Assembly (NCBI GenBank): GCA_045577965.1
Contig: JAZNJI010000002.1
Coordinates: 4,323 to 68,322, forward strand
DNA length: 64,000 bases
Source: Paludibacteraceae bacterium
Lineage (GTDB): Bacteria; Bacteroidota; Bacteroidia; Bacteroidales; Paludibacteraceae
Direction of reading: 5' to 3'
Part shown: positions 32,997 to 62,841 of the stretch, one piece after another
Layout of the letters: each line of letters starts with the position of its first letter
Numbering within the stretch: the first letter of the stretch is position 1
The notes under the pieces: generated by a model
What the model was told of the DNA's origin: nothing
The model's database searches: none
Seen by the model: only the letters and a program-made list of their open reading frames with translations
Position numbers and translations under genes: made by a program

Positions 32997-33000
32997 AATC

Positions 33001-34202: not shown

Positions 34203-34222
34203 TGTGCAGTTGAAATTTTCTG

Positions 34223-34312: not shown

Positions 34313-34334
34313 CAGGCTATTTCGAAAGAAGACA

Positions 34335-35828: not shown

Positions 35829-36061
35829 TTTTGCCTAATTTTGTCTAATATACTATAATTTTTGTAACATCATGACCTGCGAGCTATACATAAAATCTTT
35901 GATTTTAGCCCTCCAAAATAGGGGGGGGGTATCGCTGCCATGCGGTCATAGATAATCCCTCAGACAGAATATATCATGCATTGTCGTGGCTTTTTGCCGC
36001 GGCATCTGCTTTTGTGCGTACCGCGTATCGGTTCAACTCTCGGCTTTGCCGAGTATTCGCG

Positions 36062-36213
36062 CCTTTACACCTTACACCCTACACTTTACTCCCTACCTGC
36101 CACCACATTCCATTGGAACCTCATTGGAACCTCATTGGAACCTGATTGGAACCTCACCGAAGGGTTACCGAAGGAACACAAGGAGACATATAGGGGATGT
36201 ATAAGGGATATAA
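36062..36213. repeat. word arrays upstream of the surface-protein gene
   Basis: cctttacaccttacaccctacactttactccc, then cattggaacc x4, ccgaagg x2 and ataggggatgtataagggatataaatag. Confidence 0.8.
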
Positions 36214-36341
36214 ATAGAACAAACATCGCGGCTCTGCCGCATACTATAGCGCTGTTATTGCGCCAAAACTCCCTTCCTTTTAGGGAAGGGTTGGGGTTAG
36301 GCTTATTAAACTAAAATATTAACTTATAAATCAAAACATTT

Positions 36342-39300
36342 ATGAAAAAATCAATCTTATTTTTGCTGGCACTATTTAGTGTCACGATGACAACCCAAGC
36401 CGCCGATTATTATTATCGTGGCGAGAAAAATGGTTGGGGGGAAGGTATTAAACTAACCCTATCTACTGATGGAAGTTACTATTATTATGAGGCAACTGCT
36501 GGAACCCATGCTTTTAAGATCATGGAGAATGCTACAGAATGGAGCGCAAAACAATATAGAGGTGAAAATATCAAAAATGGATATAATGGCACAAATGTTA
36601 ATCTAACTGATTTAGGCGGAAGTGATCACAACTGTCAATCTAAAAGTGCATCAAAACATTATATCCTACTTTATTTGGGAAATAATGATAAAACTGCTGT
36701 AGTTTGTGCATCTACCACTCTCCCTACAGGCCTTAACGAAGTTTGGATTAAGCACCCTTGGGGAGGAGGGTCTTGGTCATACAAGCAAGCTACAGATAAT
36801 GGCGATGGTACTTTCTCTCTCTCTGCAAAGTATGGAGAAAGTGGATGTAACCTGAATGCTTATAATGGAGAAAATGCACAATGGTGGTATGGCCTTGCTG
36901 AAATAGAGGTAGAGGCAGGTCTCAATAAAGGTGATGATGCTGTATTTACAGTTGATGCTGTGACTCGTAAAATTTCTGTTACCAAAAAAGTAAGCAAGAA
37001 TCTTGGCGATATCACAATCACTATGAATTGTACTCAACAACCTAAAATATTCTTCTGGGACGTTGAAGGAAAAACTTGTGCAGCATGGCCTGGTGAGGAT
37101 ATGGTTGCAGCAGGTGCAAATACATACACCTATACCTTCGAAGATGTAGATGTTGATCTTGGCGTAAACTACAAGATTAACTTGAAAGAAGTTAACGAAA
37201 ACGAGTGGAATACTGGTGACTTACATACTACAACTGATGTTACCCATGATGTAAGCGATTTGAATATCCCAAAAATCGTGGTATTAGGTGTTAATGGAGA
37301 TTGGGGAAGTACAAATACACTTACAGAACTCTCTAACGACTATTTGACCGTTTCTAAAACTATTTCGGTAGAAGAAGTTAAAACACATGATATTAAAATG
37401 CATGTTGGCAATAATGAATACCAAGGTGGAAATGTGGTTGATATAACACGAGCAAACCCATCTTCGGAAAAGTTTGATCAGAACTATAGTTATGAAAACG
37501 GAAAATTTACCGCTGACATTGCGGGCGACTATGTATTTACGTACACTTATAAAACGCATACTCTCACCGTTACTTATCCAGAGTTACCAACTCCAGAGTA
37601 TAAAGATATTACTGTAACTGTTTACGCAAAAGAGGTTCCAAATATCTGGTGGTGGAATGGTGGCGACCTATGCCCTTCTACTGAAGACATTGTTAATCCT
37701 TCTACGGGAAATAAATATAAATGGGAAGAAGCTCCTGCGATGGAGAAAGTTGCTGGCGAAGACAATTGGTACACCAAGACTTTTGCTCAAGTAGATATTA
37801 CAAAGGGTGGTATTAAGTTCAAATTGCGATCTGCCGACTACAGTACATCTACTACTAACGAGGTTGTTACAACCGAAGATAAGTGCTATGACGCTCGCGT
37901 TATCGCAACCGTAACAGAAACCACATGTGGCGAACTTCCTGATGGTGAGGTTCCAACTGTGACTTACAACGTTACTGTTCCTACTGGAACTCCAGCTTGC
38001 TATATCGCAGGTGCGATGAATGGTTGGTCACACCAAGCAATGACTAAAGTTGATGAGACACACTACACTATCACTATTGAAGGTGCAGAAAAAACACAAG
38101 AATATAAATACTCTGCAAGCAATAATTGGGATTGTGTTGAGCTAAACGAGGATGGTTCTGAGAAATCTAATCGTACCTGGACTGAAAACGACGTAGTAGC
38201 TAAATGGGCTACTCCTGCCGCTCCAGTTCCTACCACCTACACTGTTGCTGGTGATAGCGAAGCTGCTTTTGGCACAACTTGGGATCCTACTAATACTGCT
38301 AATGACATGGCTCTTGACGGTGAACTCTACAAATGGACCAAGACCAATGTAGCTTTATCTGCTAATACTGAAATCAAATTCCAAGTGGTTAAAAATCACG
38401 ATTGGAATCAAGGTCAATGGCCAGGAAATGGCAATGACTGGGTACTGAATACTATTACTGAAGACGGTCTCTACACTATCACTATCACTTTTAAAGAAGA
38501 TGATAAGACAATCAATGCTACAGCCACCAAGACTGGTGATGTCGTTACAAAAGACTTCTCTAACCAACCAGCTACTCTCTACTTCCACCCAAGCTTCCAC
38601 TGGACATCTGATCATGCACAATTTGCTGCATATTTCTATAACAATGGTCCTGGTGCAGATGCTGAGCCAACATGGGCTAATATGACCGATAGTGATGGTG
38701 ATGGCGTTTACGAAGTAGCCAACGCTAAGCAACACGAGTATGTTATCATCTGTCGTATGAACCCAGACCGTACAGAAAACAAGTGGGATGATGATGTAAT
38801 GTGGAACCAAATCGAACATGGTATCACAATTCCTAATACCGCAGGTGATCTCAATACTTGCTTGGCATTCTGGACAAACTGCCAAGGTGATGTTCCTACT
38901 AGCGAGTGCACATGGGTAGCTCCAACTCCTCTCACTGACAAGAACTGGGGTGATTTCATTGCTGCTTACAATGGCAAAACTATTAATGCTGTAGTAGAGC
39001 GCTCATTCAAATCAAGTCAATTGCACACTCTATGCTTGCCATTTGATTTACAAACAAGTTGGCTTGGCGATGGAGCAAAAGCATACCAAATAACAAGTGT
39101 AGTTAGTAGAACAGCAGAAGAGTTAGAACTCAAAACTACTCAATGCAACTCACTACTTGCTGGCCAACCATACATAATCCAGCCTATCAAGGGCGGAGAA
39201 TACGAGCATATCATCGTTTCTGATGTAACAGTAGAAAATGTAACTGCTCAAGATTATACTGTTTCAGGAGGTGATTGCCAAGTAACAATGCAAGCTGTTG

Positions 39301-39593
39301 CAGCTACAGATGGAACAAAAACCGATGGTACTACCGAATATTATATCGGTGCAGAAGATGGTAAATTATACAAAGGAGTTGTTGATAAACTTGGCCTACG
39401 TGCACTCGTTATAATGACTGACACCGAGGGACAACCACTATCTGTTCGCGCTCGCGTAGTAGTTGGTGAGAACGAAGCTACTGGTATTGAAGATCTCTTC
39501 ACTACCGACGCTCCTGTTAAAGTTATTGAGAACGGTCAACTCATCATCATCCGTGGTGGCGAGAAGTTTAACGCACAAGGCGTGCGCCTTTGA
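36342..39593 (+). CDS. large secreted/cell-surface protein with multiple CBM/Ig-like beta-sandwich repeats
   Basis: 1083 aa. Signal peptide MKKSILFLLALFSVTMTTQA. Repeated aromatic-rich modules (e.g. AGAMNGWSHQAMTKVDETHYTITIEG..YKYSASNNWD) resemble starch/glycan-binding modules. Function not assignable. Confidence 0.7.
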   Translation: MKKSILFLLALFSVTMTTQAADYYYRGEKNGWGEGIKLTLSTDGSYYYYEATAGTHAFKIMENATEWSAKQYRGENIKNGYNGTNVNLTDLGGSDHNCQSKSASKHYILLYLGNNDKTAVVCASTTLPTGLNEVWIKHPWGGGSWSYKQATDNGDGTFSLSAKYGESGCNLNAYNGENAQWWYGLAEIEVEAGLNKGDDAVFTVDAVTRKISVTKKVSKNLGDITITMNCTQQPKIFFWDVEGKTCAAWPGEDMVAAGANTYTYTFEDVDVDLGVNYKINLKEVNENEWNTGDLHTTTDVTHDVSDLNIPKIVVLGVNGDWGSTNTLTELSNDYLTVSKTISVEEVKTHDIKMHVGNNEYQGGNVVDITRANPSSEKFDQNYSYENGKFTADIAGDYVFTYTYKTHTLTVTYPELPTPEYKDITVTVYAKEVPNIWWWNGGDLCPSTEDIVNPSTGNKYKWEEAPAMEKVAGEDNWYTKTFAQVDITKGGIKFKLRSADYSTSTTNEVVTTEDKCYDARVIATVTETTCGELPDGEVPTVTYNVTVPTGTPACYIAGAMNGWSHQAMTKVDETHYTITIEGAEKTQEYKYSASNNWDCVELNEDGSEKSNRTWTENDVVAKWATPAAPVPTTYTVAGDSEAAFGTTWDPTNTANDMALDGELYKWTKTNVALSANTEIKFQVVKNHDWNQGQWPGNGNDWVLNTITEDGLYTITITFKEDDKTINATATKTGDVVTKDFSNQPATLYFHPSFHWTSDHAQFAAYFYNNGPGADAEPTWANMTDSDGDGVYEVANAKQHEYVIICRMNPDRTENKWDDDVMWNQIEHGITIPNTAGDLNTCLAFWTNCQGDVPTSECTWVAPTPLTDKNWGDFIAAYNGKTINAVVERSFKSSQLHTLCLPFDLQTSWLGDGAKAYQITSVVSRTAEELELKTTQCNSLLAGQPYIIQPIKGGEYEHIIVSDVTVENVTAQDYTVSGGDCQVTMQAVAATDGTKTDGTTEYYIGAEDGKLYKGVVDKLGLRALVIMTDTEGQPLSVRARVVVGENEATGIEDLFTTDAPVKVIENGQLIIIRGGEKFNAQGVRL

Positions 39594-39696
39594 TAGTTAT
39601 AAACTATGAGTGATAAGTGATGAGGCAAGAATTGCGGCGCAAGCCGCATTCTCCCCGCCTTTACACTTTACACCTTACACTTTACACTATACACTA
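39594..39696. repeat. word-array / mini-hairpin repeat
   Basis: gtgataagtgatgagg, the hairpin gaattgcggcgcaagccgcattc, then cctttacactttacaccttacactttacactatacac. Confidence 0.8.
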
Positions 39697-39714
39697 AAAC
39701 AAAAAACAGAATTT

Positions 39715-39837
39715 ATGAAAAAAGTATATATCGCGCCTCAAACAGAGGCAATTGAGCTCCTAGGAGAAAACGCCATCATGGTAGGCAGTTCCCTAATTAT
39801 TGGATCTGGCGAAGGTGATGGTGGCGGCATGGGCTAA
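39715..39837 (+). CDS. possible 40-aa peptide with Gly-rich C terminus
   Basis: MKKVYIAPQTEAIELLGENAIMVGSSLIIGSGEGDGGGMG. It lies between a hairpin after the surface-protein gene and the first conserved cassette hairpin. No TAnnTTTG box lies in front of it. Confidence 0.3.
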   Translation: MKKVYIAPQTEAIELLGENAIMVGSSLIIGSGEGDGGGMG

Positions 39838-39882
39838 TCCCGCCCTCCCAAAATTGATTTATTAGCCTTCGGGCTTATCTTA

Positions 39883-39915
39883 CACCACAACCGCTCACTC
39901 TGGGCGGTTGTGGTG
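39883..39915 (+). repeat. conserved cassette hairpin, copy 1
   Basis: caccacaaccgc-tcactctgg-gcggttgtggtg. The 3' flank ttagtccactctttcagaaaaaa is shared with copy 2. Confidence 0.85.
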
Positions 39916-39976
39916 TTGTTAGTCCACTCTTTCAGAAAAAATAAGCCCAATAGTTGCATATTTCAAAAAAAAACAT

Positions 39977-39984
39977 TACCTTTG
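39977..39984 (+). promoter_or_regulatory. -7 box TACCTTTG, cassette 1
   Basis: Preceded by ttgcatatttcaaaaaaaaa, directly after hairpin copy 1. Confidence 0.7.
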
Positions 39985-40034
39985 CAGCGAAAATCTGTAG
40001 CATGATACAAAAATATTAAATAAAACTATGTTTT

Positions 40035-40166
40035 ATGAGTGCAACCGATTACTTAAATAATGCACAAGAGTGGTTAGCTCAGCAATCTCAAAGAACGATT
40101 GATTACCAATGGGAGATTCAGCATCACAACCAAATGCACAAAGCCTACGAAACCTCACTAGTATAA
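40035..40166 (+). CDS. possible 43-aa protein (cassette 1)
   Basis: Manual translation gives MSATDYLNNAQEWLAQQSQRTIDYQWEIQHHNQMHKAYETSLV. It starts 51 nt after a TACCTTTG box and is followed by conserved hairpin copy 2. Confidence 0.25.
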   Translation: MSATDYLNNAQEWLAQQSQRTIDYQWEIQHHNQMHKAYETSLV

Positions 40167-40202
40167 AGCCATCATTCTACTACACACCATTTGATATTCC
40201 AT

Positions 40203-40234
40203 CTCACAACCGTTCTCTCAGGGCGGTTGTGGTG
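40203..40234 (+). repeat. conserved cassette hairpin, copy 2
   Basis: ctcacaaccg-ttctctcagg-gcggttgtggtg, followed by tttagtccactctttcagaaaaaa. Confidence 0.85.
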
Positions 40235-40326
40235 TGTTTAGTCCACTCTTTCAGAAAAAAACATATCGAATAATACTAAATTGCATAAATTTTGTACAAT
40301 AATTTTCAAATTTCAAAAATTTATTG

Positions 40327-40334
40327 TATCTTTG
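40327..40334 (+). promoter_or_regulatory. -7 box TATCTTTG, cassette 2
   Basis: 28 nt before the DUF4160-like ATG. Confidence 0.7.
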
Positions 40335-40361
40335 CAAGCGAAAACAAGAAAATAACATGCC

Positions 40362-40652
40362 ATGCCTAAAGTTCTACAGTATATTACTGCTTATTTTACT
40401 TGGGTTTTTCTCTTCTACGGAACAGATGTCAACGAGAATCGTGCTCATGTACATGTCGGTAAACGTGGCGTAGATAAATTTTGTAAAATTTGGTTAGAAC
40501 CGTTTATTAGTATCGCGGATGCTGGCGATTTAACTCTATCGCAACAAAAGCAAGTTTTACAAATTGTTGAGGAGCAACAAGATAAACTATTGAAGCAATG
40601 GGCATTATTCAAAGAGGGGAAACCTATTAAAATGTTAACCATTAAACGCTAA
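40362..40652 (+). CDS. DUF4160-like protein
   Basis: 96 aa. The N terminus with the NENRAHVHVGKRG His-rich block resembles DUF4160. It is paired with a DUF2442-like gene 7 nt downstream. Confidence 0.55.
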   Translation: MPKVLQYITAYFTWVFLFYGTDVNENRAHVHVGKRGVDKFCKIWLEPFISIADAGDLTLSQQKQVLQIVEEQQDKLLKQWALFKEGKPIKMLTIKR

Positions 40653-40659
40653 TATAACT

Positions 40660-40923
40660 ATGTGTAAAGTAGAAGGATATTGGAATATTACTCCAAAAAT
40701 CAAATGTGTATCTTTCCCTATCCGTGGAAAGATGTCTGTAAAGTTGGAAGATGGTCGTGTGATTATTGTTCCTCTTTCTTCGTTTCCATCCATAAAAAAG
40801 GTTCCTGTCAAGGACCGCTCTAAATGGTATTTAATGGGCGGTGGAGTGACATGGGATAGTTGTCCTGAAGTTATTCATATTGAGCAGATATTAGGTAATT
40901 ATCAGAATTATCAACACGAGTAA
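40660..40923 (+). CDS. DUF2442-like protein
   Basis: 87 aa. VKLEDGRVIIVPLSSFPSIKKVPVKDRSKWYLMGGGVTWDSCPEVIHIEQIL fits the DUF2442 pattern as I recall it. Confidence 0.6.
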   Translation: MCKVEGYWNITPKIKCVSFPIRGKMSVKLEDGRVIIVPLSSFPSIKKVPVKDRSKWYLMGGGVTWDSCPEVIHIEQILGNYQNYQHE

Positions 40924-40985
40924 AAACTGCGTTTCTCCACGCAATCACAAAAACCTGTGCACACCACAGATCTTATAACCCCATC

Positions 40986-41016
40986 CCACAACCGCTCACT
41001 CTGGGCGGTTGTGGTG
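40986..41016 (+). repeat. conserved cassette hairpin, copy 3
   Basis: ccacaaccgc-tcactctgg-gcggttgtggtg, followed by tttttagga. Confidence 0.85.
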
Positions 41017-41090
41017 TTTTTAGGAGTAGCACTTTGTGAAATAATAGGCACTTATTTTATATAACACTTGCATATTTCATTTTTTTTCTG

Positions 41091-41098
41091 TACTTTTG
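41091..41098 (+). promoter_or_regulatory. -7 box TACTTTTG, cassette 3
   Basis: Preceded by cttgcatatttcatttttttt, 30 nt before ATG 41128. Confidence 0.7.
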
Positions 41099-41127
41099 CA
41101 CGGATTTTGTAGATTAATTATTAGACT

Positions 41128-41343
41128 ATGAATACACAAACATTAAACTTTACCATATTCTGTATTGGTAATGTAGCAGAATATCTCAAGATAAATGCCC
41201 GCGATGTATATCATAAAATGCAACAAGCGGACATGATATCTTCTTATATCGTGCCATGCTACGATGTCCTACATTCATTCTCTAAAGAATATATCGTCGA
41301 GGATCTTGTTAACCACATGAAGCAGAAAGGAGTATTACAATGA
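41128..41343 (+). CDS. DUF3791-like small protein
   Basis: 71 aa. It overlaps the downstream DUF3990-like gene by 4 nt, and a paralogous small ORF follows that gene. Confidence 0.5.
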   Translation: MNTQTLNFTIFCIGNVAEYLKINARDVYHKMQQADMISSYIVPCYDVLHSFSKEYIVEDLVNHMKQKGVLQ

Positions 41344-41813
41344 TTACTCTTTATCACACATCCAATCAAGAAGTGCCACAACCTGATGTTCTGCATTCTA
41401 GACAGCACCTCGACTTCGGACGAGGTTTCTACCTAACACCTATCTACGAACAAGCTAAGAAATATGGCGAACGCTTCTTACGCAAAGGCGAAGAAGCATA
41501 CATCAATGTGTATGAACTCGACGAAGATTTAACTGGCTTTACCAAAAAAGTATTTGAGCAATACGACAATCAATGGTTGGATTTTGTTACTGCTTGCAGA
41601 AAAGGACATGACCATCCTCACTATGACATTATAGAAGGAGGTATTGCAGATGACCAAGTGTTCAACACTATAGATTTGTATTTTGCAGGAATATACACTT
41701 ATGAACAAGCCCTTGATCAACTGCGCTACAAGAAACCCAATCATCAGATGTGTATAACAAATGCTAATCTTCTAAAAGAGAAATTACATTTTATTGAATC
41801 GATCAAACTTTAA
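41340..41813 (+). CDS. DUF3990-like protein with PARP/ART-like H-Y-E signature
   Basis: 157 aa. LYHTS (His), GRGFYLT (Tyr) and DIIEGGIADD (Glu) occur in the order and spacing typical of H-Y-E ADP-ribosyltransferases. Confidence 0.55.
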   Translation: MITLYHTSNQEVPQPDVLHSRQHLDFGRGFYLTPIYEQAKKYGERFLRKGEEAYINVYELDEDLTGFTKKVFEQYDNQWLDFVTACRKGHDHPHYDIIEGGIADDQVFNTIDLYFAGIYTYEQALDQLRYKKPNHQMCITNANLLKEKLHFIESIKL

Positions 41814-41818
41814 CTACT

Positions 41819-42028
41819 ATGGAAGCTAATCCGATTATTCTTCAACAGAAATACGCACGTATTGTACAATTGTTCGCAAATAAAGCCGGTTATTCATATG
41901 AGCAAGCGTTGGGAATGTTCTACGACTCCAAAACTTTTGAATTAATCAGCGAAGGAGTAGCTGATATGCATTGCCTAAGCGATGAATACCTCGCTGACGA
42001 ACTCTGCATTGAATATAATATCCACTAG
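41819..42028 (+). CDS. DUF3791-like small protein (second copy)
   Basis: 69 aa. It begins 5 nt after the DUF3990-like gene and is followed by conserved hairpin copy 4. Confidence 0.5.
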   Translation: MEANPIILQQKYARIVQLFANKAGYSYEQALGMFYDSKTFELISEGVADMHCLSDEYLADELCIEYNIH

Positions 42029-42053
42029 ACATCAAAACTCTTTGAACTTATCT

Positions 42054-42083
42054 CCCAACCGCTCACTCAGGGCGGTTGTGGTG
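42054..42083 (+). repeat. conserved cassette hairpin, copy 4
   Basis: cccaaccgc-tcactcagg-gcggttgtggtg, followed by tgtttagga. The left arm is 2 nt shorter. Confidence 0.8.
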
Positions 42084-42100
42084 TGTTTAGGAATATACTG

Positions 42101-42138
42101 CGTGATTGAGTGATGAGTGATAAACTATGAGTGATGAG
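42101..42138. repeat. word array (C-poor)
   Basis: cgtgattgagtgatgagtgataaactatgagtgatgag. Confidence 0.7.
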
Positions 42139-42240
42139 TTTCTACGGACTTTTTGAAAACCTATCAGAAAATGTCCGTAGGAATTCATTACAAAATCATA
42201 AGTCACTCATTATCAAATAAAACCTTTTGTTAAGTAAGCA

Positions 42241-42310
42241 TAGGATATTTAGGAAATTTAGGAATTTCGGGAATTTAATTTCCTAAAATTCCTAAAATTC
42301 CTAATGTTCC
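42241..42310. repeat. palindromic word array
   Basis: taggatatttaggaaatttaggaatttcgggaattt-aa-tttcctaaaattcctaaaattcctaatgttcc. Confidence 0.85.
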
Positions 42311-42864
42311 TTACTTATATTTAGCCGAAAGGATAAGTATGGTATATGAATCATATAGTTATCATATACTAATCTCATAGTAATGTCATAGTATGAACCC
42401 GTCAAGAACCCGTAATTGGTAGTTAATTCAGTAATTCTCCTTGCCTTCGGCAGAAATCTTATTAAATCCTATTGCGCAGATGCCACCCATTTCAAAGCAC
42501 TCCGTGATAAATTGCAACCGCTAGCACTCGCTTTTAGCTCGTCCGCTTAATCTTACAGAATGTGAAGGAGAAACTACTGACAGTGTCAACAAGTATATAA
42601 ATCCCATTCAAAATATTGTTGTACCTTCGAACATCTGCCTGCCTATCGGCATTCCCTCGTAGCCACGTTCGCACAATGCCGGACATACTTCAAACCACTC
42701 GCATTTTTTTGAATGCGGCTTCGCCTTTTATTGAGTTAAAGCTAATGCGCTCTATTGTGAGTAAACTCTCTCCGAGCGCTTAGATTTAACTCAATTGATA
42801 TATAAAATATATCTCCATTCAAAAAAAAATTGCTCGCTTATTTGCGTATGTGCATTTTTTGTTG

Positions 42865-42872
42865 TACCTTTG
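42865..42872 (+). promoter_or_regulatory. -7 box TACCTTTG for pyrH
   Basis: 62 nt before the ATG. Confidence 0.7.
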
Positions 42873-42933
42873 TAGCGGTAATAGTATATTACGCATACCA
42901 CACCCAAAGTTAGAACCATAAAAAAAGACAGAT

Positions 42934-43638
42934 ATGAACAACCGAATACTACTGAAACTTTCAGGCGAAAGCCTCATGGGCGCACAGCAATACGGTATTG
43001 ATCCTCAACGCCTATCTGACTATGCCAACCAAATTCACAACATCGCTAACACTGGCCTACAAGTAGCTATCGTCATCGGTGGAGGCAATATCTTCCGCGG
43101 ACTCAGCGGCGCACAAAAAGGCTTTGACCGCGTCAAAGGCGACCAAATGGGCATGCTAGCCACCGTGATCAACTCGCTCGCACTCTGCTCCGCATTGGAG
43201 GCTGTAGGACAAAAAGCACGCGTGATGACTAGCGTACGCATGGAGCCAATCGGCGAACTATACACAGCTGACAAAGCACTTCGCCTATTGAGCAAAGGAT
43301 ATGTAGTGATCGTGGCTGGTGGCACTGGCAACCCATACTTCACTACCGACACCGCTTCCGTACTCCGCGCCATCGAACTCAAAGCAGATGTGATGATGAA
43401 GGGCACACGCGTGGACGGCATCTACACCGCTGACCCAGAGAAAGACCCTACGGCTACCAAATACACTCAGATCACCTACGACGAGATCCTGGAGATGAAG
43501 CTCAAGGTCATGGACCTCACAGCCATCACCATGTGCCGTGAGAACAACATGCCAATCTATGTTTTTGACATGGACACCGTAGGCAACCTCGAAAAAGTAA
43601 TCAACGGACAACAAATAGGAACACTGGTCAAGCCATAG
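42934..43638 (+). CDS. pyrH: UMP kinase
   Basis: ILLKLSGESL, VIGGGNIFRG and TTDTASVLRAIE are present. Confidence 0.95.
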   Translation: MNNRILLKLSGESLMGAQQYGIDPQRLSDYANQIHNIANTGLQVAIVIGGGNIFRGLSGAQKGFDRVKGDQMGMLATVINSLALCSALEAVGQKARVMTSVRMEPIGELYTADKALRLLSKGYVVIVAGGTGNPYFTTDTASVLRAIELKADVMMKGTRVDGIYTADPEKDPTATKYTQITYDEILEMKLKVMDLTAITMCRENNMPIYVFDMDTVGNLEKVINGQQIGTLVKP

Positions 43639-43642
43639 GCTT

Positions 43643-43716
43643 GGTGTAGAATGGTATAGGATAGTATAGAAGTGGTATAGGATGGTATAGAATAGTATAG
43701 AAGTGGTATAGGATGG
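43643..43716. repeat. C-free word array upstream of four-helix-bundle gene 1
   Basis: ggtgtagaatggtataggatagtatagaagtggtataggatggtatagaatagtatagaagtggtataggatgg. Confidence 0.9.
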
Positions 43717-44117
43717 TTGGATTTGCTACGAAAATAGAAGATTTGAGGATATGGCAAAATGCTCGTACTATCAGTAAAGCTATATACAGCCTCACTTACC
43801 ATGATAACTTTGAGAAAGATTATCGCTTTGTACAACAAATTCGCGCCGCTGCAGGATCTATAATGGATAATATTGCAGAAGGATTCGGAAGAAGTGGAAG
43901 CAAAGAATTTATACAATTTCTTTATATTGCAAGAGGCTCTTGCCAAGAAGTTATTAGCCAACTATACCGTGCATGGGATATTCAATATATTTCTGAGGAA
44001 GAATTCACAGAAACTAAAAAACAGGTCGAGACAACTTCTGTTATGATTTATAACCTAATAGATAATCTCAAGCAATCAGAAAACAAAGGTCCCAAGTACA
44101 GCCCTACACCCCACTAA
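43713..44117 (+). CDS. four-helix-bundle protein (23S rRNA IVS protein / Avd-like family)
   Basis: IEDLRIWQNA...FVQQIRAAAGSIMDNIAEGFGRSGSKEFIQFLYIARGSCQEV is the family signature. A paralog lies at 62361-62762. Confidence 0.8.
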   Translation: MVGFATKIEDLRIWQNARTISKAIYSLTYHDNFEKDYRFVQQIRAAAGSIMDNIAEGFGRSGSKEFIQFLYIARGSCQEVISQLYRAWDIQYISEEEFTETKKQVETTSVMIYNLIDNLKQSENKGPKYSPTPH

Positions 44118-44251
44118 ACCACCCTATACAACCCTACACAGCGCGAAGCGCTACTAAACAACCCTATACAATACTACACAGCGCAAAGCGCTACTAAACA
44201 ACCCTAAACAACCCTACACAACCCTATACAACCCTATACAACCCTATACAA
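44103..44251. repeat. G-free word array with two GCGAAGC-type mini-hairpins downstream of four-helix-bundle gene 1
   Basis: ccctataca/ccctacaca words plus agcgcgaagcgct and agcgcaaagcgct. It runs up to the frr ATG. Confidence 0.9.
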
Positions 44252-44252
44252 T

Positions 44253-44813
44253 ATGATCGAACCTAAAGTTATTTTGAACGACGCAGAGGAATTGATGGAA
44301 TCTGCTGTCATGTACCTCGACGACGCTTTGGCGCGCATCCGCGCAGGCAAAGCCAGTGCACGAATCTTGGATGTAGTCAAGGTGGAATACTACGGACAAA
44401 TGTCGCCACTATCCAATGTGGCTACTATCACCACCCCTGACGCTCGCACCATCCAAATCCAACCTTGGGAGAAGAAAATGCTCTCCGACATCGAACGCGC
44501 ATTGATCAACTCCAGCATTGGTTTGGCTCCAAACAACAATGGCGAGTGCATCCGACTCATGATACCACCATTGACCGAGGAACGCCGTAAAGAACTCGCT
44601 AAGCAATGCAAAGGCGAAGCCGAGAACGCAAAAGTGAGCGTACGCAACGCACGCCGCGATGCCATCGACACCCTCAAAAAGCAAATCAAAGAAGGTTTGC
44701 CAGAGGACGCTGAGAAAGATGCGGAGAACGATGCACAAAAACTTCACGACAAATATGTGAAGCGCATCGACGAAATCTACGCAGCCAAGGAGAAAGAAAT
44801 CATGACTGTGTAA
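44253..44813 (+). CDS. frr: ribosome recycling factor
   Basis: 186 aa. IRAGKASARILD..V.VEYYG, PPLTEERRKEL and RNARRDA are present. Confidence 0.95.
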   Translation: MIEPKVILNDAEELMESAVMYLDDALARIRAGKASARILDVVKVEYYGQMSPLSNVATITTPDARTIQIQPWEKKMLSDIERALINSSIGLAPNNNGECIRLMIPPLTEERRKELAKQCKGEAENAKVSVRNARRDAIDTLKKQIKEGLPEDAEKDAENDAQKLHDKYVKRIDEIYAAKEKEIMTV

Positions 44814-44934
44814 GTTTAGGTTAAAGGTTAGAGGTTAAAGGTTAGAGGTTAAAGGCTAGAAATACCACCCTATACCACCCTACACAACACTACTCTACTG
44901 CTAAACTACTATCGCAAAGCGATCACTCATACTG
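44814..44934. repeat. word arrays (C-free, then G-free) with mini-hairpin
   Basis: gtttaggttaaaggttagaggttaaaggttagaggttaaagg, then ataccaccctataccaccctacacaacactactctactgctaaactact, then atcgcaaagcgat. Confidence 0.9.
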
Positions 44935-46077: not shown

Positions 46078-46122
46078 CCACACTACACAATATTGAACAA
46101 CGTTGAACCATTTTGAACCAAC
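46078..46122. repeat. word array
   Basis: ccacactacacaatattgaacaacgttgaaccattttgaaccaac. The ttgaac words also occur at 62.3-62.8 kb. Confidence 0.75.
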
Positions 46123-46126
46123 TTTT

Positions 46127-47119
46127 ATGCGAGGACTAGTTATAAAATCTACTGGTACGAGTTACGGCGTACACTTCGAGGACGGAACAACCGCCGAATG
46201 TCATGTCAAGGGCAATTTCCGCATTCGTGGTATTCGCTCTACTAACCCTATTGCCATAGGCGACCATGTTGAGGTGACGCAACTAGAGGACGGTACCAAT
46301 TGGATCACCGAACTATACGACCGCAAAAACTACATCATCCGCCGCTCCACCAACCTGAGCTATGCCTCACATATCATAGCAGCCAATGTAGATATGGCGG
46401 CATTGATCGTCACACTCCGTCACCCCGAGACATCAACCACCTTTATTGATCGCTTCCTAGCGACCTGCGAAGCTTATCGCGTGCCCGCGTGCATAATATT
46501 TAATAAGGTGGATCTGCTCACCGAAGATGAACTGGAGCAACTATCTACCCTCCGCCAATTATACGAGTCATTGGGCTATCCTACCTACGCTATCTCTGCA
46601 ATAACCCTCACTTCTTCGCCTGATAGCCCAATCGCCCAATCGCCTAATCACCTCATCTCTGCCATCTTTGATGGCAAAGTTACTCTCCTCTCTGGCAATT
46701 CTGGCGTAGGAAAATCTACCCTTTTGAACGCCATTTTAGGCAAAGATGTTGCTCGAACAGGCGCCATCTCCTCTGCCCACCACAAGGGTATGCACACCAC
46801 CACCTTCTCCGAGATGTACCCGCTACACAACACTACACAACACTACACAACACTACACAACACTACCCCACATTCCTGGCTCATCGACACCCCAGGCATC
46901 AAGGGATTTGGTCTGCTAGACATTGAAAAAGAGGAAGTAGGGCACTATTTCCGAGAGATTTTTGAGGTAGCACGCGAATGCCGCTACTCCAACTGCTTGC
47001 ACACGGGCGAGCCTGGATGTGCGGTATATCAAGCAGTGGTAGATGGCAAGATCGCCCTCTCACGCTACGAGAGTTACCTCAGTATCCTAGACGACACCAA
47101 CGAAGGGAAGTATCGTTGA
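46127..47119 (+). CDS. rsgA: ribosome small-subunit-dependent GTPase A
   Basis: OB-fold N terminus, NKVDL, GNSGVGKSTLLNAI, DTPG and Zn knuckle CRYSNCLHTGEPGCAV are present. It contains two in-frame word arrays. Confidence 0.88.
   Translation: MRGLVIKSTGTSYGVHFEDGTTAECHVKGNFRIRGIRSTNPIAIGDHVEVTQLEDGTNWITELYDRKNYIIRRSTNLSYASHIIAANVDMAALIVTLRHPETSTTFIDRFLATCEAYRVPACIIFNKVDLLTEDELEQLSTLRQLYESLGYPTYAISAITLTSSPDSPIAQSPNHLISAIFDGKVTLLSGNSGVGKSTLLNAILGKDVARTGAISSAHHKGMHTTTFSEMYPLHNTTQHYTTLHNTTPHSWLIDTPGIKGFGLLDIEKEEVGHYFREIFEVARECRYSNCLHTGEPGCAVYQAVVDGKIALSRYESYLSILDDTNEGKYR
46614..46652 (+). repeat. in-frame word array inside rsgA
   Basis: cttcgcctgatagcccaatcgcccaatcgcctaatcacc encodes SSPDSPIAQSPNH. 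Confidence 0.7.
46823..46869 (+). repeat. in-frame 10-nt-period word array inside rsgA
   Basis: The unit ctacacaaca is repeated 4 times, followed by ctacccc. It encodes LHNTTQHYTTLHNTTP between the conserved HTTT..E and IDTPG blocks. Confidence 0.85.
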
Positions 47120-48206: not shown

Positions 48207-48255
48207 TAATACAACGCTACACAACACAACACTAACCATTCTAAACAACACTACT
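48207..48255. repeat. G-poor word array forming the recA leader
   Basis: taatacaacgctacacaacacaacactaaccattctaaacaacactact, followed directly by ATG. Confidence 0.8.
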
Positions 48256-49263
48256 ATGGCTGAAGAAAAGAAAAATCCGTCCGTAGAGAAACTCAAGGCA
48301 TTGCAACTCGCAATGGAAAAAATTGATAAGCAATTTGGTAAAGGCGCCATCATGAAATTGGGTGATGACAAAGTAGAAGATGTACCTGTAATACCATCTG
48401 GTTCAGTAGGTCTCAACGTCGCACTCGGCGTAGGCGGTTACCCTCGCGGACGTATCGTAGAGATTTATGGTCCAGAGTCTTCTGGTAAAACCACCCTCGC
48501 CATCCATGCTATGGCAGAGGTGCAAAAGCAAGGCGGTATCGCTGCTATCATCGATGCCGAGCACGCATTCGACCGCTTCTATGCAGAGAAACTAGGAGTC
48601 AACACCAACGACTTGCTCATCGCCCAACCAGACTGCGGCGAGCAAGCACTCGACATTGCAGACGAACTCATCCGCAGTGCGGCAGTGGACCTTGTAGTCA
48701 TCGACTCTGTAGCTGCCCTCACCCCAAAAGCTGAGATTGAAGGCGATATGGGCGACAACAAAGTGGGTCTGCATGCGCGACTCATGTCGCAAGCGCTCCG
48801 CAAACTGACAGCTACCATCAACAAGACCAACACCACCTGTATCTTTATTAACCAGTTGCGTGAAAAGATTGGCGTGATGTTTGGTAACCCAGAGACCACA
48901 ACGGGTGGTAACGCGCTGAAGTTCTATGCTTCAGTTCGCCTCGACATTCGCAAATCTACCGCTATTAAGGACGGAGACGAGATTCTTGGTAACCAAGTTC
49001 GCGTGAAAGTCATCAAGAATAAGGTGGCTCCTCCATTCAAGAAAGCGGAGTTCGACCTCATGTTCAACGAAGGTATCTCTCGCGTAGGCGAACTCGTGGA
49101 TATGGGTGTAGAGAAAGGTGTCTTGACCAAGTCTGGCTCATGGTATAGCTACGAGGGCAACAAACTTGCTCAAGGTCGCGATGCGGCTAAGAACGTTCTC
49201 CGCGACAACCCAGACCTCGCCGAAGAGATCGAGAACAAGATCATGGAAGCGCTGAAGAAATAG
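48256..49263 (+). CDS. recA: recombinase RecA
   Basis: [29 protein letters not shown] and [28 protein letters not shown] are present. The track start at 48172 runs through the promoter and a word array. Confidence 0.96.
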
Positions 49264-49440
49264 TCGCTGAGCGACGTAAATGGCGGCAAAGCCGCGAAAA
49301 TGGTCTTCGACGAAAATGGCACCTCTGGTACGAAAATGGTCTTCGACGTAAATTACGTGAAACCACTTTCGTGAGCAAAGCGAGCCACTTTCATGAACGA
49401 AGTGAATCACTTTCGTGAGCGATAGCGAACCATTTAACAT
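49264..49440. repeat. word-array / hairpin repeat downstream of recA
   Basis: The palindrome gtcgctgagcgac, (g)aaaatgg words and cactttcgtgagc..agcga units are present. It is related to 29451-29640. Confidence 0.85.
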
Positions 49441-51031: not shown

Positions 51032-51112
51032 CCACCCTACGCAACACAACACTACACTATACTACCCTACACTACACTATACTACACCACACTACACAAT
51101 ACTACACAACCC
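51030..51112. repeat. G-free word array forming the tcdA leader
   Basis: accaccctacgcaacacaacactacactatactaccctacactacactatactacaccacactacacaatactacacaaccc. Confidence 0.9.
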
Positions 51113-51114
51113 TT

Positions 51115-51798
51115 ATGTTTACACGAACGATACAACTCATAGGCGAAGACGGCTTTCGCGCGTTGCAGAATGCTCGCGTGATACTCTTCGGCGTGGGCGG
51201 CGTGGGCGGTTGGTGCGCAGAGACACTCCTGCGCACAGGCATCGGACACCTGACCCTGGTGGATTTCGACAAAGTGGACACTACTAACCTCAACCGTCAA
51301 GTGGTAGCTACCCACAATAATATCGGACAAAGCAAAGTCCTCGAGATGCAAAAGCGCCTTCTCAATATCGCTCCTGAAGCAGATATTCAAGCCATTGACC
51401 GACAATACAATGCCGATACAGCAGACTCCTTCGACCTCACGCAATACGACATCGTGATTGATGCCATCGACATGGTGGAGTGCAAAGCACTACTGCTCTA
51501 CCGTGCGACACAAGCGGGTTGCAGAGTGTATTCTAGCATGGGTGCAGGTCGCAAAACCGATCCACAAAAGATTCGCACCGCAGAGTTTTGGAAGGTACAA
51601 GGCTGCCCTCTCGCGCGTGCCTTACGTACCAAAATGAAAAAGGCAGGACTAATGCCTGCCTCTAAGATTCAATGTGCCTATTCCGAAGAGATCAGTGGAG
51701 ACCAAGGTACCCTCGCCCCTGTCGTGGGCGTATTTGGCATGACCCTCGCCAGCTTGGTAATCAATGACCTAAATAATCATTCGAACTGCTCCGCGTAG
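51115..51798 (+). CDS. tcdA: tRNA threonylcarbamoyladenosine dehydratase (ThiF/E1-like)
   Basis: ARVILFGVGGVGGWCAETLLRTGIGHLTLVDFDKVDTTNLNRQ is present. Confidence 0.8.
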   Translation: MFTRTIQLIGEDGFRALQNARVILFGVGGVGGWCAETLLRTGIGHLTLVDFDKVDTTNLNRQVVATHNNIGQSKVLEMQKRLLNIAPEADIQAIDRQYNADTADSFDLTQYDIVIDAIDMVECKALLLYRATQAGCRVYSSMGAGRKTDPQKIRTAEFWKVQGCPLARALRTKMKKAGLMPASKIQCAYSEEISGDQGTLAPVVGVFGMTLASLVINDLNNHSNCSA

Positions 51799-60298: not shown

Positions 60299-62311
60299 AT
60301 GAATTCAAAACAACTAATGACAAAAGCGGCAGATAACATCCGTATCCTCGCCGCAGCAATGGTCGAGAAGGCCAAGAGTGGTCACCCAGGTGGCTCTATG
60401 AGTGGAGCTGACTTTGTACAAGTGCTTTACTCTGAGTTCCTTATCCACGACCCAGAGAACCCATGTTGGGAGGCGCGCGACCGTTTCTTCCTTGATCCTG
60501 GTCACATGTCACCAATGCTCTATGCACAACTCTGCATGACAGGCCACTTCACCATGGACGAACTCAAGCAACTCCGTCAATGGGGCAGCGTCACTCCTGG
60601 TCACCCAGAGCGCAATGTAGAGCGTGGCATCGAAAACACCTCTGGTCCTCTTGGTCAAGGTCACACTTTTGCTGTTGGTGCGGCTATTGCGGCTAAGTGG
60701 TTCAACGCTCGTTACGGCGAGATCCACAACCCTACAATCTACGCTTTCATCTCTGATGGTGGTATCCAAGAGGAGATTAGCCAAGGTGCTGGCCGTATGG
60801 CAGGTCACCTCAAACTCAACAACCTCATCATGTACTACGACTCCAACGAGATTCAGCTCTCTACCTCTTGCAACGAGGTAAGTTCCGAGAACGTAGCCAT
60901 GAAGTACGAGGCATGGGGTTGGTATGTTCAAGACATCGATGGTCATGATCCTGACGCTATCCGCCAAGCTATCATCAACGCACAAGCAGAGAAGAATCGC
61001 CCATCGCTCATCATCGGTCATACTTCTATGGGTAAAGGCTGCGTGAATGCCGAAGGCGAGAGTTGGGAAGGTAAGACCTCTACCCATGGTCAACCACTCA
61101 GCAAGTCTGGTGCATCGTTTGAAGCTACTGTCAAGAACCTTGGCGGAGACCCTGAGAACCCATTCCAAATTTTCCCTGACGTACAAGCGCTCTTCGACAA
61201 ACGCGCTGAGGAACTTCGTGAGATAACCAACCAACGCTATGCCGCTTATCACGAATGGAAAGAGGCTAATCCATTGGCTGCCAATGAGTACGAGACCTTT
61301 ATGAGCGGCGAGACACCTTGCCTTGACTGGAGTTTGCTCCAACAGAAAGACAATGTCGCAACCCGTACAGCTTCCGCTTCTGCCCTCTCCTTCCTCTCTG
61401 AGCATGTCGGCAACATGATTGTATCCTCCGCCGACCTTTGCAACTCAGATAAGACCGACGGCTTCCTCAAGCATACCCATGTCATCACAGCCGATGACTT
61501 CACCGGTCGCTTCCTCCAATCAGGTGTGAGCGAGCTCACCATGGCGTGCGTCTGCATTGGTATGGCGCTCCACGGCGGTATCATTCCTGCTTGTGGTACC
61601 TTCTTCGTCTTCTCTGACTACATGAAACCTGCTATCCGTATGGCAGCCCTCATGGAGATTCAGATGATGTTCGTTTGGAGCCACGATGCTTTCCGTGTAG
61701 GTGAGGATGGTCCTACCCACGAGCCAGTGGAGCAAGAGGCACAAATCCGTCTCATGGAGAAACTCCACAACCATTCTGGTCGTCCAAGCGTGATGGTACT
61801 CCGTCCTGCTGACGCAGAGGAGACTACTGCTGCATGGAAGATGGCAATGGAGAATATCTACACCCCAACTGCCCTTATCTTCTCTCGCCAAGATGTTACC
61901 TCTGTGCCTAACACCTCAGAGGCTGGCGTGAAGAAAGGTGCGTATATCGTAAGCAAAGACGAGAGCCCACAAGTGGTGATGATCGCTTCTGGTAGCGAGG
62001 TATCTACCCTTATGGCTGGTGCTGAACTCCTCCGCGCCGAGGGTATCCGCCTTCAAATCGTGAGCGTTCCTTCAGAAGCGATCTTCCGTCAACAAAGCAA
62101 GGAGTACCAAGCAGAGGTGTTGCCACAAGGTGTTACTCGCTTTGGTTTGACCGCAGGCTTGCCATGTAACCTCGAAGGCCTCGTAGGCGAACACGGTACA
62201 GTTTGGGGACTCAATTCCTTCGGTTTCTCCGCACCATACAAAGTGCTCGACGAGAAACTCGGCTTCACCGCAGAGAATGTATATAACCAAGTTAAAGCGT
62301 TGCTTTCGTAG
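60299..62311 (+). CDS. tkt: transketolase
   Basis: SGHPGGSMS, GPLGQGH and the TPP/pyrimidine-binding blocks are present over 670 aa. Confidence 0.95.
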   Translation: MNSKQLMTKAADNIRILAAAMVEKAKSGHPGGSMSGADFVQVLYSEFLIHDPENPCWEARDRFFLDPGHMSPMLYAQLCMTGHFTMDELKQLRQWGSVTPGHPERNVERGIENTSGPLGQGHTFAVGAAIAAKWFNARYGEIHNPTIYAFISDGGIQEEISQGAGRMAGHLKLNNLIMYYDSNEIQLSTSCNEVSSENVAMKYEAWGWYVQDIDGHDPDAIRQAIINAQAEKNRPSLIIGHTSMGKGCVNAEGESWEGKTSTHGQPLSKSGASFEATVKNLGGDPENPFQIFPDVQALFDKRAEELREITNQRYAAYHEWKEANPLAANEYETFMSGETPCLDWSLLQQKDNVATRTASASALSFLSEHVGNMIVSSADLCNSDKTDGFLKHTHVITADDFTGRFLQSGVSELTMACVCIGMALHGGIIPACGTFFVFSDYMKPAIRMAALMEIQMMFVWSHDAFRVGEDGPTHEPVEQEAQIRLMEKLHNHSGRPSVMVLRPADAEETTAAWKMAMENIYTPTALIFSRQDVTSVPNTSEAGVKKGAYIVSKDESPQVVMIASGSEVSTLMAGAELLRAEGIRLQIVSVPSEAIFRQQSKEYQAEVLPQGVTRFGLTAGLPCNLEGLVGEHGTVWGLNSFGFSAPYKVLDEKLGFTAENVYNQVKALLS

Positions 62312-62351
62312 TTCAATATAGTTCAACGTTGTTCAAAATAGTTCAACATTG
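62311..62351. repeat. gttcaa word array upstream of four-helix-bundle gene 2
   Basis: gttcaatatagttcaacgttgttcaaaatagttcaacattg. Confidence 0.85.
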
Positions 62352-62360
62352 TATACTTGA

Positions 62361-62762
62361 ATGGCAGATATTCGTAAGATAGAAGACTTGCGCGTTTGGC
62401 AGAGTGCACGTGTGATTTGCAAAGATGTATATGTGCTGACACGCAAGGAAGAATTTGAAAAAGATTTTCGCTTTGTTCAACAAATCCGTTCTGCAGCAGG
62501 ATCTATTATGGATAATATCGCAGAAGGATTTGGACGAGGTGGAAACAAAGAGTTCTTGCAATTCTTGACTATTGCGCGAGGATCTATTCAAGAGGTATTA
62601 AGCCAGTTATACAGAGCTTTTGATGTTGGCTATATTACAGAAGATGAATTGGAAGTAGTTAAACAGAATGTTAATTCTACAGCTATTATGATTCATAACT
62701 TAATTGAAGCTATCAAAAAATCCGATATGAAAGGTTCTAAATACAACACTGAACCACACTGA
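62361..62762 (+). CDS. four-helix-bundle protein (23S rRNA IVS protein / Avd-like family), paralog 2
   Basis: IEDLRVWQSA...FVQQIRSAAGSIMDNIAEGFGRGGNKEFLQFLTIARGSIQEV is present. By eye it is about 60 percent identical to the 43713-44117 product. Confidence 0.8.
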   Translation: MADIRKIEDLRVWQSARVICKDVYVLTRKEEFEKDFRFVQQIRSAAGSIMDNIAEGFGRGGNKEFLQFLTIARGSIQEVLSQLYRAFDVGYITEDELEVVKQNVNSTAIMIHNLIEAIKKSDMKGSKYNTEPH

Positions 62763-62830
62763 ACAACTCTGAACCACAACATTGAACAGCGCGCAGCGCT
62801 ATTGAACCATATTGAACAATTTTGAACCAA
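62744..62830. repeat. tgaacc/ttgaac word array with mini-hairpin downstream of four-helix-bundle gene 2
   Basis: caacactgaaccacactgaacaactctgaaccacaacattgaac, then agcgcgcagcgct, then attgaaccatattgaacaattttgaacc. Its words are the reverse complement of the upstream gttcaa words. Confidence 0.9.
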
Positions 62831-62841
62831 ATAATAAAATT

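Follow-up and report, generated by a model that had tools for sequence, protein, structure and literature searches.

In a genome of a Paludibacteraceae bacterium (assembly GCA_045577965.1, contig JAZNJI010000002.1), the spacer between pyrH and frr is occupied by a cassette: an open reading frame (ORF) for a four-helix-bundle protein of the PF05635 family (23S rRNA intervening sequence protein, S23p or Avd-like) lies between two arrays of short tandem words, and the words of one array are the reverse complement of those of the other. The stretch analysed, positions 4,323 to 68,322 of the contig, is called the window below; it is 64,000 nt long, coordinates are counted from its first base, and all features given are on its plus strand unless stated otherwise. 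The element is an S23p cassette of the intervening sequence (IVS) type in a new setting, the spacer of a messenger RNA. Across the gene family, the two arms co-vary at the level of the whole word. Such a bracket of co-varying tandem-word arms, common to the family, seems not to have been described before; the literature searched contained no description of complementary tandem-word arrays around family members located outside rRNA. As to what the bracket does, we see a little better than an even chance that in this IVS-type cassette the arms pair over a long range into an RNA stem, which RNase III probably processes.

Anatomy of two cassettes and their protein

The host genes are pyrH upstream (42934..43638; UMP kinase, Pfam AA_kinase, E 2.5e-40) and frr downstream (44253..44813; ribosome recycling factor, Pfam RRF, E 6e-64). 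The 614-bp spacer between them is wholly taken up by the 5' array, the ORF and the 3' arrays. The 5' arm (43641..43725, delimited by a C-free run and by Tandem Repeats Finder, TRF) starts 2 nt after the pyrH stop codon and is a C-free tandem array of about seven decamers of the TGGTATAGRA type; TRF places it at 43642-43717, with a period of either 10 (7.4 copies) or 31 (93% matches). Its final unit contains the ATG of the cassette ORF (43713..44117, 134 aa). The 3' arm (44098..44251; TRF arrays at 44098-44140, 44113-44220 and 44194-44251, with periods of 10 and 40) is made of arrays of the reverse-complement words CCCTATACAA and CCCTACAC. Its first bases still belong to the final ORF codons, and a single nucleotide separates its end from the frr ATG. 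Embedded in it are two mini-hairpins found by motif search, AGCGC-GAA-GCGCT (AGCGCGAAGCGCT, 44140..44152) and AGCGC-AAA-GCGCT (AGCGCAAAGCGCT, 44180..44192); because both contain G, the strictly G-free run downstream is limited to 44191-44254.

A preliminary description of this DNA had located the elements exactly or to within a few bases, and had read the YSPTPH-stop codons as array sequence, which they are. Its C-free upstream array and the reverse-complement words downstream stand, the downstream array being strictly G-free only over the run just given. The two hairpins, which it called GCGAAGC-type, are present but are lineage-specific, and no AGCGC hairpin occurs in the orthologous cassettes L101-L104 (94%-identical protein). 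In the window the 13-nt hairpin AGCGC-N3-GCGCT is found four times (33032, 44140, 44180 and 62788), each time directly beside a word array.

In the minimum free energy (MFE) fold of the cassette RNA, the arrays pair around the ORF (-138.5 kcal/mol, z = -3.2 with 20 shuffles), and the arm duplex alone is worth -50.5 kcal/mol (duplexfold). The flanks are thus able to form the imperfect stem around the ORF that had been proposed. The topology of an rRNA IVS, claimed at the same time, holds as a topology and not as a location: the predicted stem sits in the pyrH-frr spacer, and an Rfam scan of the window returned no known RNA family and no rRNA. A terminator-like site was searched for between pyrH and frr and none was found.

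A second cassette, of the same anatomy and with another word (GTTCAA/TTGAAC), was revealed by tblastn of the window (E 5e-57) between tkt and leuS. Its ORF (62361..62762) encodes 133 aa, 63% identical to the first. The 5' arm (62309..62354; TRF 62307-62352 and inverted-repeat pairs) has four copies of TAGTTCAA-type words, the first of which includes the TAG stop codon of tkt. The 3' arm (62741..62832; TRF 62746-62778 and 62800-62829) is composed of CTGAACCA and TTGAACA words with a central hairpin, AGCGC-GCA-GCGCT (62788..62800, motif search). These arms pair in both the MFE fold (-147.9 kcal/mol, z = -5.2) and the centroid fold, their duplex amounts to -43.0 kcal/mol, and an inverted-repeat scan pairs them as well (I12, I13, I22). 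According to TRF, no other part of the window has the GTTCAA/TTGAAC word. Orthologs of the window's tkt-leuS cassette are present in two species-representative genomes (L006, L007) and one metagenome contig (L012). Between these orthologs dN/dS is 0.09-0.24, which indicates that the protein is maintained by selection. In L007, GTTCAGC upstream and CTGAGCC downstream suggested a compensatory change, but the two did not align as a base pair.

The 134-aa protein matches PF05635 (23S_rRNA_IVP) over profile positions 1-105 of 106, with E 5.6e-35 and 120.2 bits (cut-off 33.8). Its close homologs are named 'four helix bundle protein' by the sources (family PF05635 / TIGR02436); as a single query it matches 1,933 sequence clusters at E <= 1e-20, and an exact-sequence look-up gave no record. 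An AlphaFold2 (AF2) model of the monomer has a predicted local distance difference test score (pLDDT) of 87, with helices at residues 12-28, 37-58, 63-89 and 95-121; the array-encoded tail, residues 124-134, is predicted to be disordered. The sole sequence match in the PDB is Xcc0516 (2gsc, E 3e-11), a protein from outside the diversity-generating retroelements (DGRs), to which Foldseek aligns the model with a template modelling (TM) score of 0.9, a root-mean-square deviation of 1.3-1.7 and 31% identity. Foldseek also aligns it to BT_0352 (2rld, 'S23 ribosomal protein family'; TM 0.77-0.88) and to the DGR protein Avd (4dwl, 8ub7; TM 0.8-0.87 normalised to the target, identity only 8-9%). The early assignment to the four-helix-bundle, IVS-protein or Avd-like family is therefore upheld by the profile, by the 2gsc sequence match and by the fold matches, Avd included. 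Residues S49, N53 and E56 are invariant in two family alignments and make up an S-x3-N-x2-E core; arginine R44 is one position farther from the serine than in the GxxRxxxSxxxNxxE motif quoted for the family (PMC3936711).

Given the Avd-like fold (4dwl, 8ub7) and the fact that DGR loci contain PF05635 more often than any other Pfam family (PMC10053308), the gene might be taken for the Avd accessory component of a DGR, or for a remnant of one. We hold this to be extremely improbable. Identity is 8-9% to Avd versus 31% to the non-DGR Xcc0516, and the direct neighbours, pyrH/frr and tkt/leuS, are housekeeping genes. No reverse-transcriptase family match was obtained among the approximately 50 ORFs of the window scanned against Pfam, so that the hint at a DGR in the preliminary description came to nothing. 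As to a template repeat/variable repeat (TR/VR) pair, the inverted- and tandem-repeat scans of the window show only word arrays, a window-wide direct-repeat search not having been made. With neither a reverse transcriptase among those ORFs nor a TR/VR pair in those scans, the DGR reading was rejected locally.

The bracket across the gene family

The family was sampled through 11 loci from a scan of species-representative genomes and 80 from a metagenome scan (proteins 38-65% identical to the query). Together they span Bacteroidota, one genome of the candidate phyla radiation (CPR) and metagenome contigs that come from many separate samples; flanks are complete in 82 loci, which form the quantitative set. 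On visual inspection, a G/T-rich array precedes the ATG and a complementary C/A-rich array follows the stop codon at nearly every locus. For the array periods, autocorrelation at a threshold of 0.7 gave no calls and TRF was run on the flanks instead: it finds an array upstream in 67 of the 82 loci and downstream in 78, with a dominant period of 7 nt, a median of 4.4 copies per arm and a median span of about 34 nt on each side. The polarity is G-rich arm 5' and C-rich arm 3' in 49 loci, and the reverse in three. The lengths of the 5' and 3' arms show only a weak correlation (rho 0.22, p 0.065).

Cognate flanks share on average 11.9 reverse-complement 7-mers, as against 1.8 for non-cognate flanks and 1.4 for position-shifted controls. 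At least five are shared in 60 of the 82 cognate loci versus 10% of the non-cognate pairs. The mean energy of the arm duplex is likewise lower for cognate than for non-cognate arms (-37.7 versus -25.1 kcal/mol, p = 5e-12). These values come from k-mer sharing and from shorter arms, which replaced duplex energies computed with flanks of about 120 and about 230 nt; the latter flanks took in neighbouring coding sequence, and their energies were uninformative because non-cognate pairs also reached about -50 kcal/mol.

The word itself differs at most loci. Among the arm words are GGTATAG, GTTCAA, GGTGTAG, GGAGTAG, ACGGACA (Bacteroidaceae), CAGATTAC (a Candidatus Uhrbacteria genome) and CTGAGTG; others are TTGGTGGATT, GTTTCGGG, GATTAAAG, GTTCAAGAG and GCAGAAAG. 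Besides the second copy in the window, most of the 82 relatives are array-flanked, each with its own word. Between loci in different contexts, cross-complementarity is 4.2 for proteins 65-80% identical and about 1.5 below 55%, with cognate complementarity remaining high throughout the range of protein identity. Since cross-complementarity rises with protein identity, the arms travel and diverge with the ORF, self-complementarity being preserved at each locus.

Of the 80 metagenomic loci, none is in rRNA. In one metagenome contig (L049), the PF05635 cassette (1486-1878, arms GTTTAAAG / CTTTAAAC) sits between an S-adenosylmethionine (SAM) riboswitch aptamer (1296-1404, Rfam, 75 bits) and an ORF at ~1948 that is read, from its first residues only, as a candidate metH. 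This position puts the cassette inside a transcribed, regulated 5' leader.

Both the fold and the size of the arrays invite another reading, in which the pentamer encoded by the cassette would use the arrays as a binding platform. It would hold on to the repeated words, one word per protomer, or to the periodically interrupted duplex, with autoregulation or protection of its own RNA as the outcome. This reading is rather unlikely in our opinion; it is also compatible with the other readings, pairing of the arms being then the means to protein binding. The protein shares its fold with the pentameric Xcc0516, BT_0352 and Avd, homopentamers being known for 2gsc and Avd (PMC4990558; bioRxiv 10.1101/2023.10.23.563531), and all five Avd protomers contact an 11-bp stem-loop in the DGR ribonucleoprotein (bioRxiv 10.1101/2023.10.23.563531); the arrangement would resemble that of Avd on a stem-loop with flipped-out bases. 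The median of 4.4 units per arm is near five, the 5' arm overlaps the start codon and the 3' arm the stop codon, and the protein is under purifying selection. It has to be set against this that the words differ fully between loci while the invariant residues (S49, N53, E56 and others) do not, so that shape and not sequence would be recognised. Moreover, copy number goes from 2 to 17 without any change in the protein, and no nucleic-acid binding is reported for non-DGR members in the literature searched.

Presence, absence and probable remnants in relatives and in the window

The surroundings of frr were compared among relatives with a very similar Frr (the best 120 matches listed were all at least 89% identical), which form a dense Paludibacteraceae cloud. 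In six contigs (L092-94 and L098-100; Frr about 92-93% identical) pyrH and frr are separated by 5 nt (CAACC). In three others (L095-97; the relatives' Frr being 89-93% identical) the spacer is 60-78 nt long and contains an unrelated CTAGA-type array and no gene. The distribution of the cassette is thus sporadic: it is absent from L092-L100, and present at the same site in the window, in L001 and in L101-L104 (proteins 94-99% identical), with arrays of different lengths. Its absence from the pyrH-frr junction of close relatives is most simply explained by an insertion, in agreement with the early suggestion that the module had entered a tight gene pair; it is not a syntenic feature of all relatives, and its flanks do co-vary. 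A comparison of filled with empty pyrH-frr sites shows no target-site duplication.

Upstream of pyrH the gene order differs too. In L095 and L096, genes for triose-phosphate isomerase and a hexapeptide-transferase are directly 5' of pyrH; in the window this pair (28701-30166) is about 12.8 kb away. The interval 30126-42933 codes for a nucleotidyltransferase, a Schlafen/AlbA_2-HATPase protein, a 1083-aa CBM26 protein and a DUF3990 protein and, judged from sequence, is a variable island. Its gene-poor part (39.8-42.1 kb) has a hairpin-forming element of about 30 nt, CCACAACCGCTCACTCTGGGCGGTTGTGG, repeated at 39882-39912, 40205-40235, 40986-41013 and ~42060-42090. At the left end of the window (426-2131), a gene for a DpnII-type restriction endonuclease and one for a D12-class adenine methyltransferase form a restriction-modification pair.

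Related cassettes (75-81% identical) occupy other housekeeping junctions, among them lysS-gpsA and FAD-dependent protein-thiF. The nearest paralog in another context (L002/L109) is 80-81% identical to the first cassette and has similar arm words, as compared with 63% identity between the two window copies; GT(A/G)TAG words are common to three different loci, the first window cassette, L002/L109 and L005. At the FAD-dependent protein-thiF junction, four contigs (L105-L108) have the order recA-FADdep-PF05635-thiF-topA with an identical protein; their 3' arm goes from 4 to 17 units and their 5' arm is constant. The window shares the order recA-FADdep-thiF-topA and has, between the FAD-dependent protein gene and thiF, a solitary G-free array of the CTACAC type (51042..51116) that retains the relatives' AACCCTTATG junction to thiF. 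This array is probably a 3' arm left after loss of the ORF. Since it occupies the site of a cassette 3' arm, some solitary arrays are likelier to be remnants of cassettes than the reverse.

The window contains dozens of word arrays without a cassette. Solitary ones upstream of start codons are found at 48217-48257 (recA), 57094-57152 (serS), 44860-44899 (an Omp85-family gene) and 39658-39708, and another at 56120-56209 before the minus-strand gene ending at 55998; each of these is devoid of G when read on the sense strand of the gene that follows, and lies just 5' of that gene's start codon. Bacteroidia do not rely on Shine-Dalgarno pairing, with mRNA structure tuning initiation (PMC6847099), and in such a lineage the solitary G-free arrays could be unstructured translation leaders.

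From there it is a short step to the view that the arrays of the cassettes are generic intergenic furniture (G-free leaders, terminator-like hairpins, products of slippage) unrelated to the gene. The abundance of cassette-free arrays speaks for it, as do the fact that most of the solitary arrays examined are G-free just 5' of a start (thiF, recA, serS, frr and the minus-strand gene at 55998), the mode of initiation in Bacteroidia and the arrays without cassette in the pyrH-frr spacer of L095-97. We nevertheless consider it very improbable. Within the window the GTTCAA/TTGAAC word is unique to the second cassette. The bracket follows the family across unrelated phyla and environments, with cognate pairing far above that of non-cognate and shifted controls, and the arm words co-diverge with the protein across contexts. 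Finally, the array at 51042-51116 takes the place of a cassette 3' arm in relatives.

Arrays also come in pairs without an ORF. The block that follows frr (44814..44923, TRF) has a G/T-rich AGGTTAAAGGTTAGAGG array, a C/A-rich CCACCCTATACC array and, at 44911, a hairpin, ATCGCAAAGCGAT, related to the AGCGC-N3-GCGCT type. This site is polymorphic: it is empty in L098, and in L095-L097 and L100 it holds different word pairs around a central hairpin. Four such ORF-less modules (3989-4062, 42241-42304, 33030-33166 and 44814-44923) have a G/T-rich array followed immediately by a complementary C/A-rich one, with words such as TGCGGTTTT x4 / AAAACCGCA x4 or TAGGAAATT / TTCCTAAAA and with the polarity of the cassette arms; in some, a short GC hairpin stands between the arrays or next to them. 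Two arrays lie in frame within genes. One, of C/A-rich CTACAC type (46823-46877), is in rsgA (46103-47119), where it encodes HNTTQHYTTLHNTTPH in a loop of the RsgA GTPase domain; in L092 and L093 the same loop has an unrelated sequence and a different length. The other, also of CTACAC type (50529-50578), encodes NNNTTPHYTILHHTTP in the gene for the FAD-dependent protein (49415-51031).

These ORF-less arrays lead to a more speculative proposal, namely that PF05635 cassettes are widespread, unrecognised self-bracketing elements whose arms are both made and kept complementary by templated addition of repeats or by fold-back copying, the pentamer recruiting a nuclease or polymerase in trans. The arms would then not be recognition sequences, the solitary and ORF-less arrays (including those in frame in rsgA and in the FAD-dependent protein gene) would be footprints, an Avd-like pentamer would bind the arm duplex, and the rRNA IVSs would be a special case that happened to be noticed first. 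The polarity speaks for it: the G/T-rich strand runs 5' to 3' towards the centre on both strands, as it should if repeats are added to the 3' ends of a break. On the whole we find this proposal decidedly unlikely.

A proposed long-range stem or DNA-level repeats, and comparison with known systems

In the reading that we favour, the cassette would consist of a selectively maintained four-helix-bundle gene and of two arms that belong to it. As it fills the space from the pyrH stop to the frr start, it is most likely part of the host transcript and would be transcribed within the pyrH-frr message. The 5' arm contains no C and the 3' arm hardly any G; with such three-letter alphabets, neither arm can fold stably on itself. 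The two would find each other across about 400 nt and form a long, periodically interrupted duplex enclosing the ORF. If the rRNA-borne members of Coxiella and Leptospira are taken as the model, this duplex would be cut by RNase III. The cassette RNA would thereby be set free, and the upstream host message would be parted from the downstream one; a tight operon, a 5' leader or an rRNA helix could in this way tolerate an insertion. For frr, the remainder of the 3' arm would then be a leader free of G and of structure, which would suit Bacteroidia. Copy number in the arms would change fast by slippage, and the arms would travel and diverge with the ORF.

Several points weigh against this scheme. 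Co-transcription with pyrH and frr, pairing of the RNA in vivo, cleavage by RNase III and any role of the protein are what we infer from the DNA sequence. Mismatches between arms that would be compatible with G:U pairs show no excess on the sense strand (60 sense- versus 97 antisense-compatible), and sense and antisense arm duplexes are equally stable (-37.7 versus -38.9 kcal/mol, p = 0.55); for these two reasons no RNA-specific covariation is claimed. The arms are imperfect, being 84% identical over a mean of 32 nt and giving helices of 4-12 bp with internal loops, and they may be of unequal length, as in L105-L108 (4-17 units facing a constant 5' arm), so that much of the longer one would stay unpaired. 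There is no RNase III among the annotated ORFs of the window, to which this search was confined. The analogy with Coxiella is itself incomplete, since the Coxiella ORF is decaying and the one described here is under purifying selection. It is moreover an analogy of topology only, because the cassette is outside rRNA and RNase III cleavage is here a supposition.

Equal stability of the sense and antisense duplexes means that complementarity could be maintained at the DNA level. The arms may accordingly be seen as terminal inverted repeats of a mobile or recombining cassette, extruded as a cruciform or as a single-stranded DNA hairpin for insertion, excision or repair, and kept complementary by template switching or gene conversion between arms and not by selection on the RNA. 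We regard this as unlikely, though it has a number of facts on its side: presence and absence vary at one site among close relatives; the arm words move with the ORF between genomic contexts, as seen for GT(A/G)TAG at three loci; the sense strand bears no G:U signature and its duplex energy is that of the antisense strand; and GNA-loop mini-hairpins of the d(GCGAAGC) type are present. Hairpins of this type are unusually stable DNA hairpins. IVSs were also proposed to be remnants of mobile elements in the older literature (PMC4990558). To be weighed against these facts are the lack of any transposase, recombinase or reverse transcriptase in or beside any cassette examined, and a 614-bp spacer that arms and ORF explain entirely. 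The termini are not conserved and no target-site duplication distinguishes filled from empty pyrH-frr sites; with arm sequences that are locus-specific, no sequence-specific enzyme could recognise them all. Movement must also be rare, since paralogs in one genome are only 63-80% identical and orthologous positions are kept across species. A transposon of the insertion sequence (IS) type or a miniature inverted-repeat transposable element (MITE) was considered separately and is unsupported, there being no transposase, termini that differ between loci and no target-site duplication.

The origin, spread and purpose of the rRNA IVSs and of their conserved ORF have been a puzzle since the early 1990s, and the family, which is large and includes the essential DGR accessory protein, has non-DGR members without known function. 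If the bracket is general, it offers a simple sequence signature for cassettes, for ORF-less derivatives and for remnants. The idea of excision by RNase III would become testable on ordinary mRNAs, such as the essential pyrH-frr message or that of a riboswitch-controlled gene, and the words, each locus having its own, would constitute a natural set of mutually orthogonal long-range RNA clamps. The arrays also create in-frame peptide insertions in housekeeping proteins. Most contigs with close relatives of the cassette measure less than 2 kb (e.g. 38 of 63 blocks for P0143); these short contigs, together with differences in array length at identical protein, suggest that arrays may break metagenome assemblies.

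Among known systems, the cyanobacterial short tandemly repeated repetitive (STRR) sequences are a lead only. They are heptanucleotides that are also found inside a structured RNA gene and, like the arrays described here, they are tandem heptamers scattered in non-coding regions; no link between STRR and PF05635 genes or complementary pairs was found in the literature searched. MITEs and insertion sequences share with the cassettes inverted termini, presence/absence polymorphism and short ORF-less derivatives. They differ in that the termini in the window are locus-specific tandem arrays and not a recognition sequence common to the family, with neither a transposase nor a visible target-site duplication. 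The RNase III stems that flank 16S and 23S rRNA provide another parallel: long-range pairing within one transcript releases a unit (PMC6582327), and as proposed here the pairing across a functional unit is the substrate for cleavage. Those stems, unlike the arms, are unique and conserved sequences and not tandem arrays, and they show no insertion polymorphism and no protein-coding cassette.

The DGR RNA comes closer as far as the protein is concerned. By cryo-electron microscopy, the Avd pentamer grips an 11-bp RNA stem-loop, and a long-range avd:Sp duplex brackets the template beside avd (bioRxiv 10.1101/2023.10.23.563531). The four-helix-bundle fold is homologous, and in the DGR too a long-range duplex brackets a functional segment beside the gene. 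In the window, by contrast, the duplex brackets the gene itself, its arms are locus-specific tandem arrays, neither a reverse transcriptase match (about 50 ORFs) nor a TR/VR pair (repeat scans) accompanies it, and protein identity is about 9%. Family genes have otherwise been described wedged between cas genes, e.g. cmr3 and cmr2 (PMC3936711), and in 16S and 23S insertions of CPR bacteria, their function being called unknown in both cases.

The nearest system remains the 23S rRNA IVS. In Coxiella burnetii, the S23p ORF is in the loop of an IVS whose ends are inverted repeats that pair into a 28-bp stem, with two or three tandem GACAGAT heptamers, in strain-variable number, directly before the ATG; the stem was shown experimentally to be cut by RNase III at the first repeat, with excision and no religation, and the ORF is apparently untranslated and decaying (PMC4990558). 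IVSs with an S23p ORF are also present in Leptospira, Brucella and Xanthomonas, according to work cited in PMC4990558. The window cassette departs from this model in lying between protein genes and not in an rRNA helix (23S helices 9, 25, 45 or 16S), in having longer arrays on both sides, with a 10-nt period in the first copy, and in having an ORF under purifying selection; processing by RNase III, experimental in Coxiella, is presumed for the window. What the two have in common is an ORF of the same family in the loop, an enclosing stem, tandem repeats before the ATG, a variable copy number and a sporadic distribution that looks like the result of insertion.

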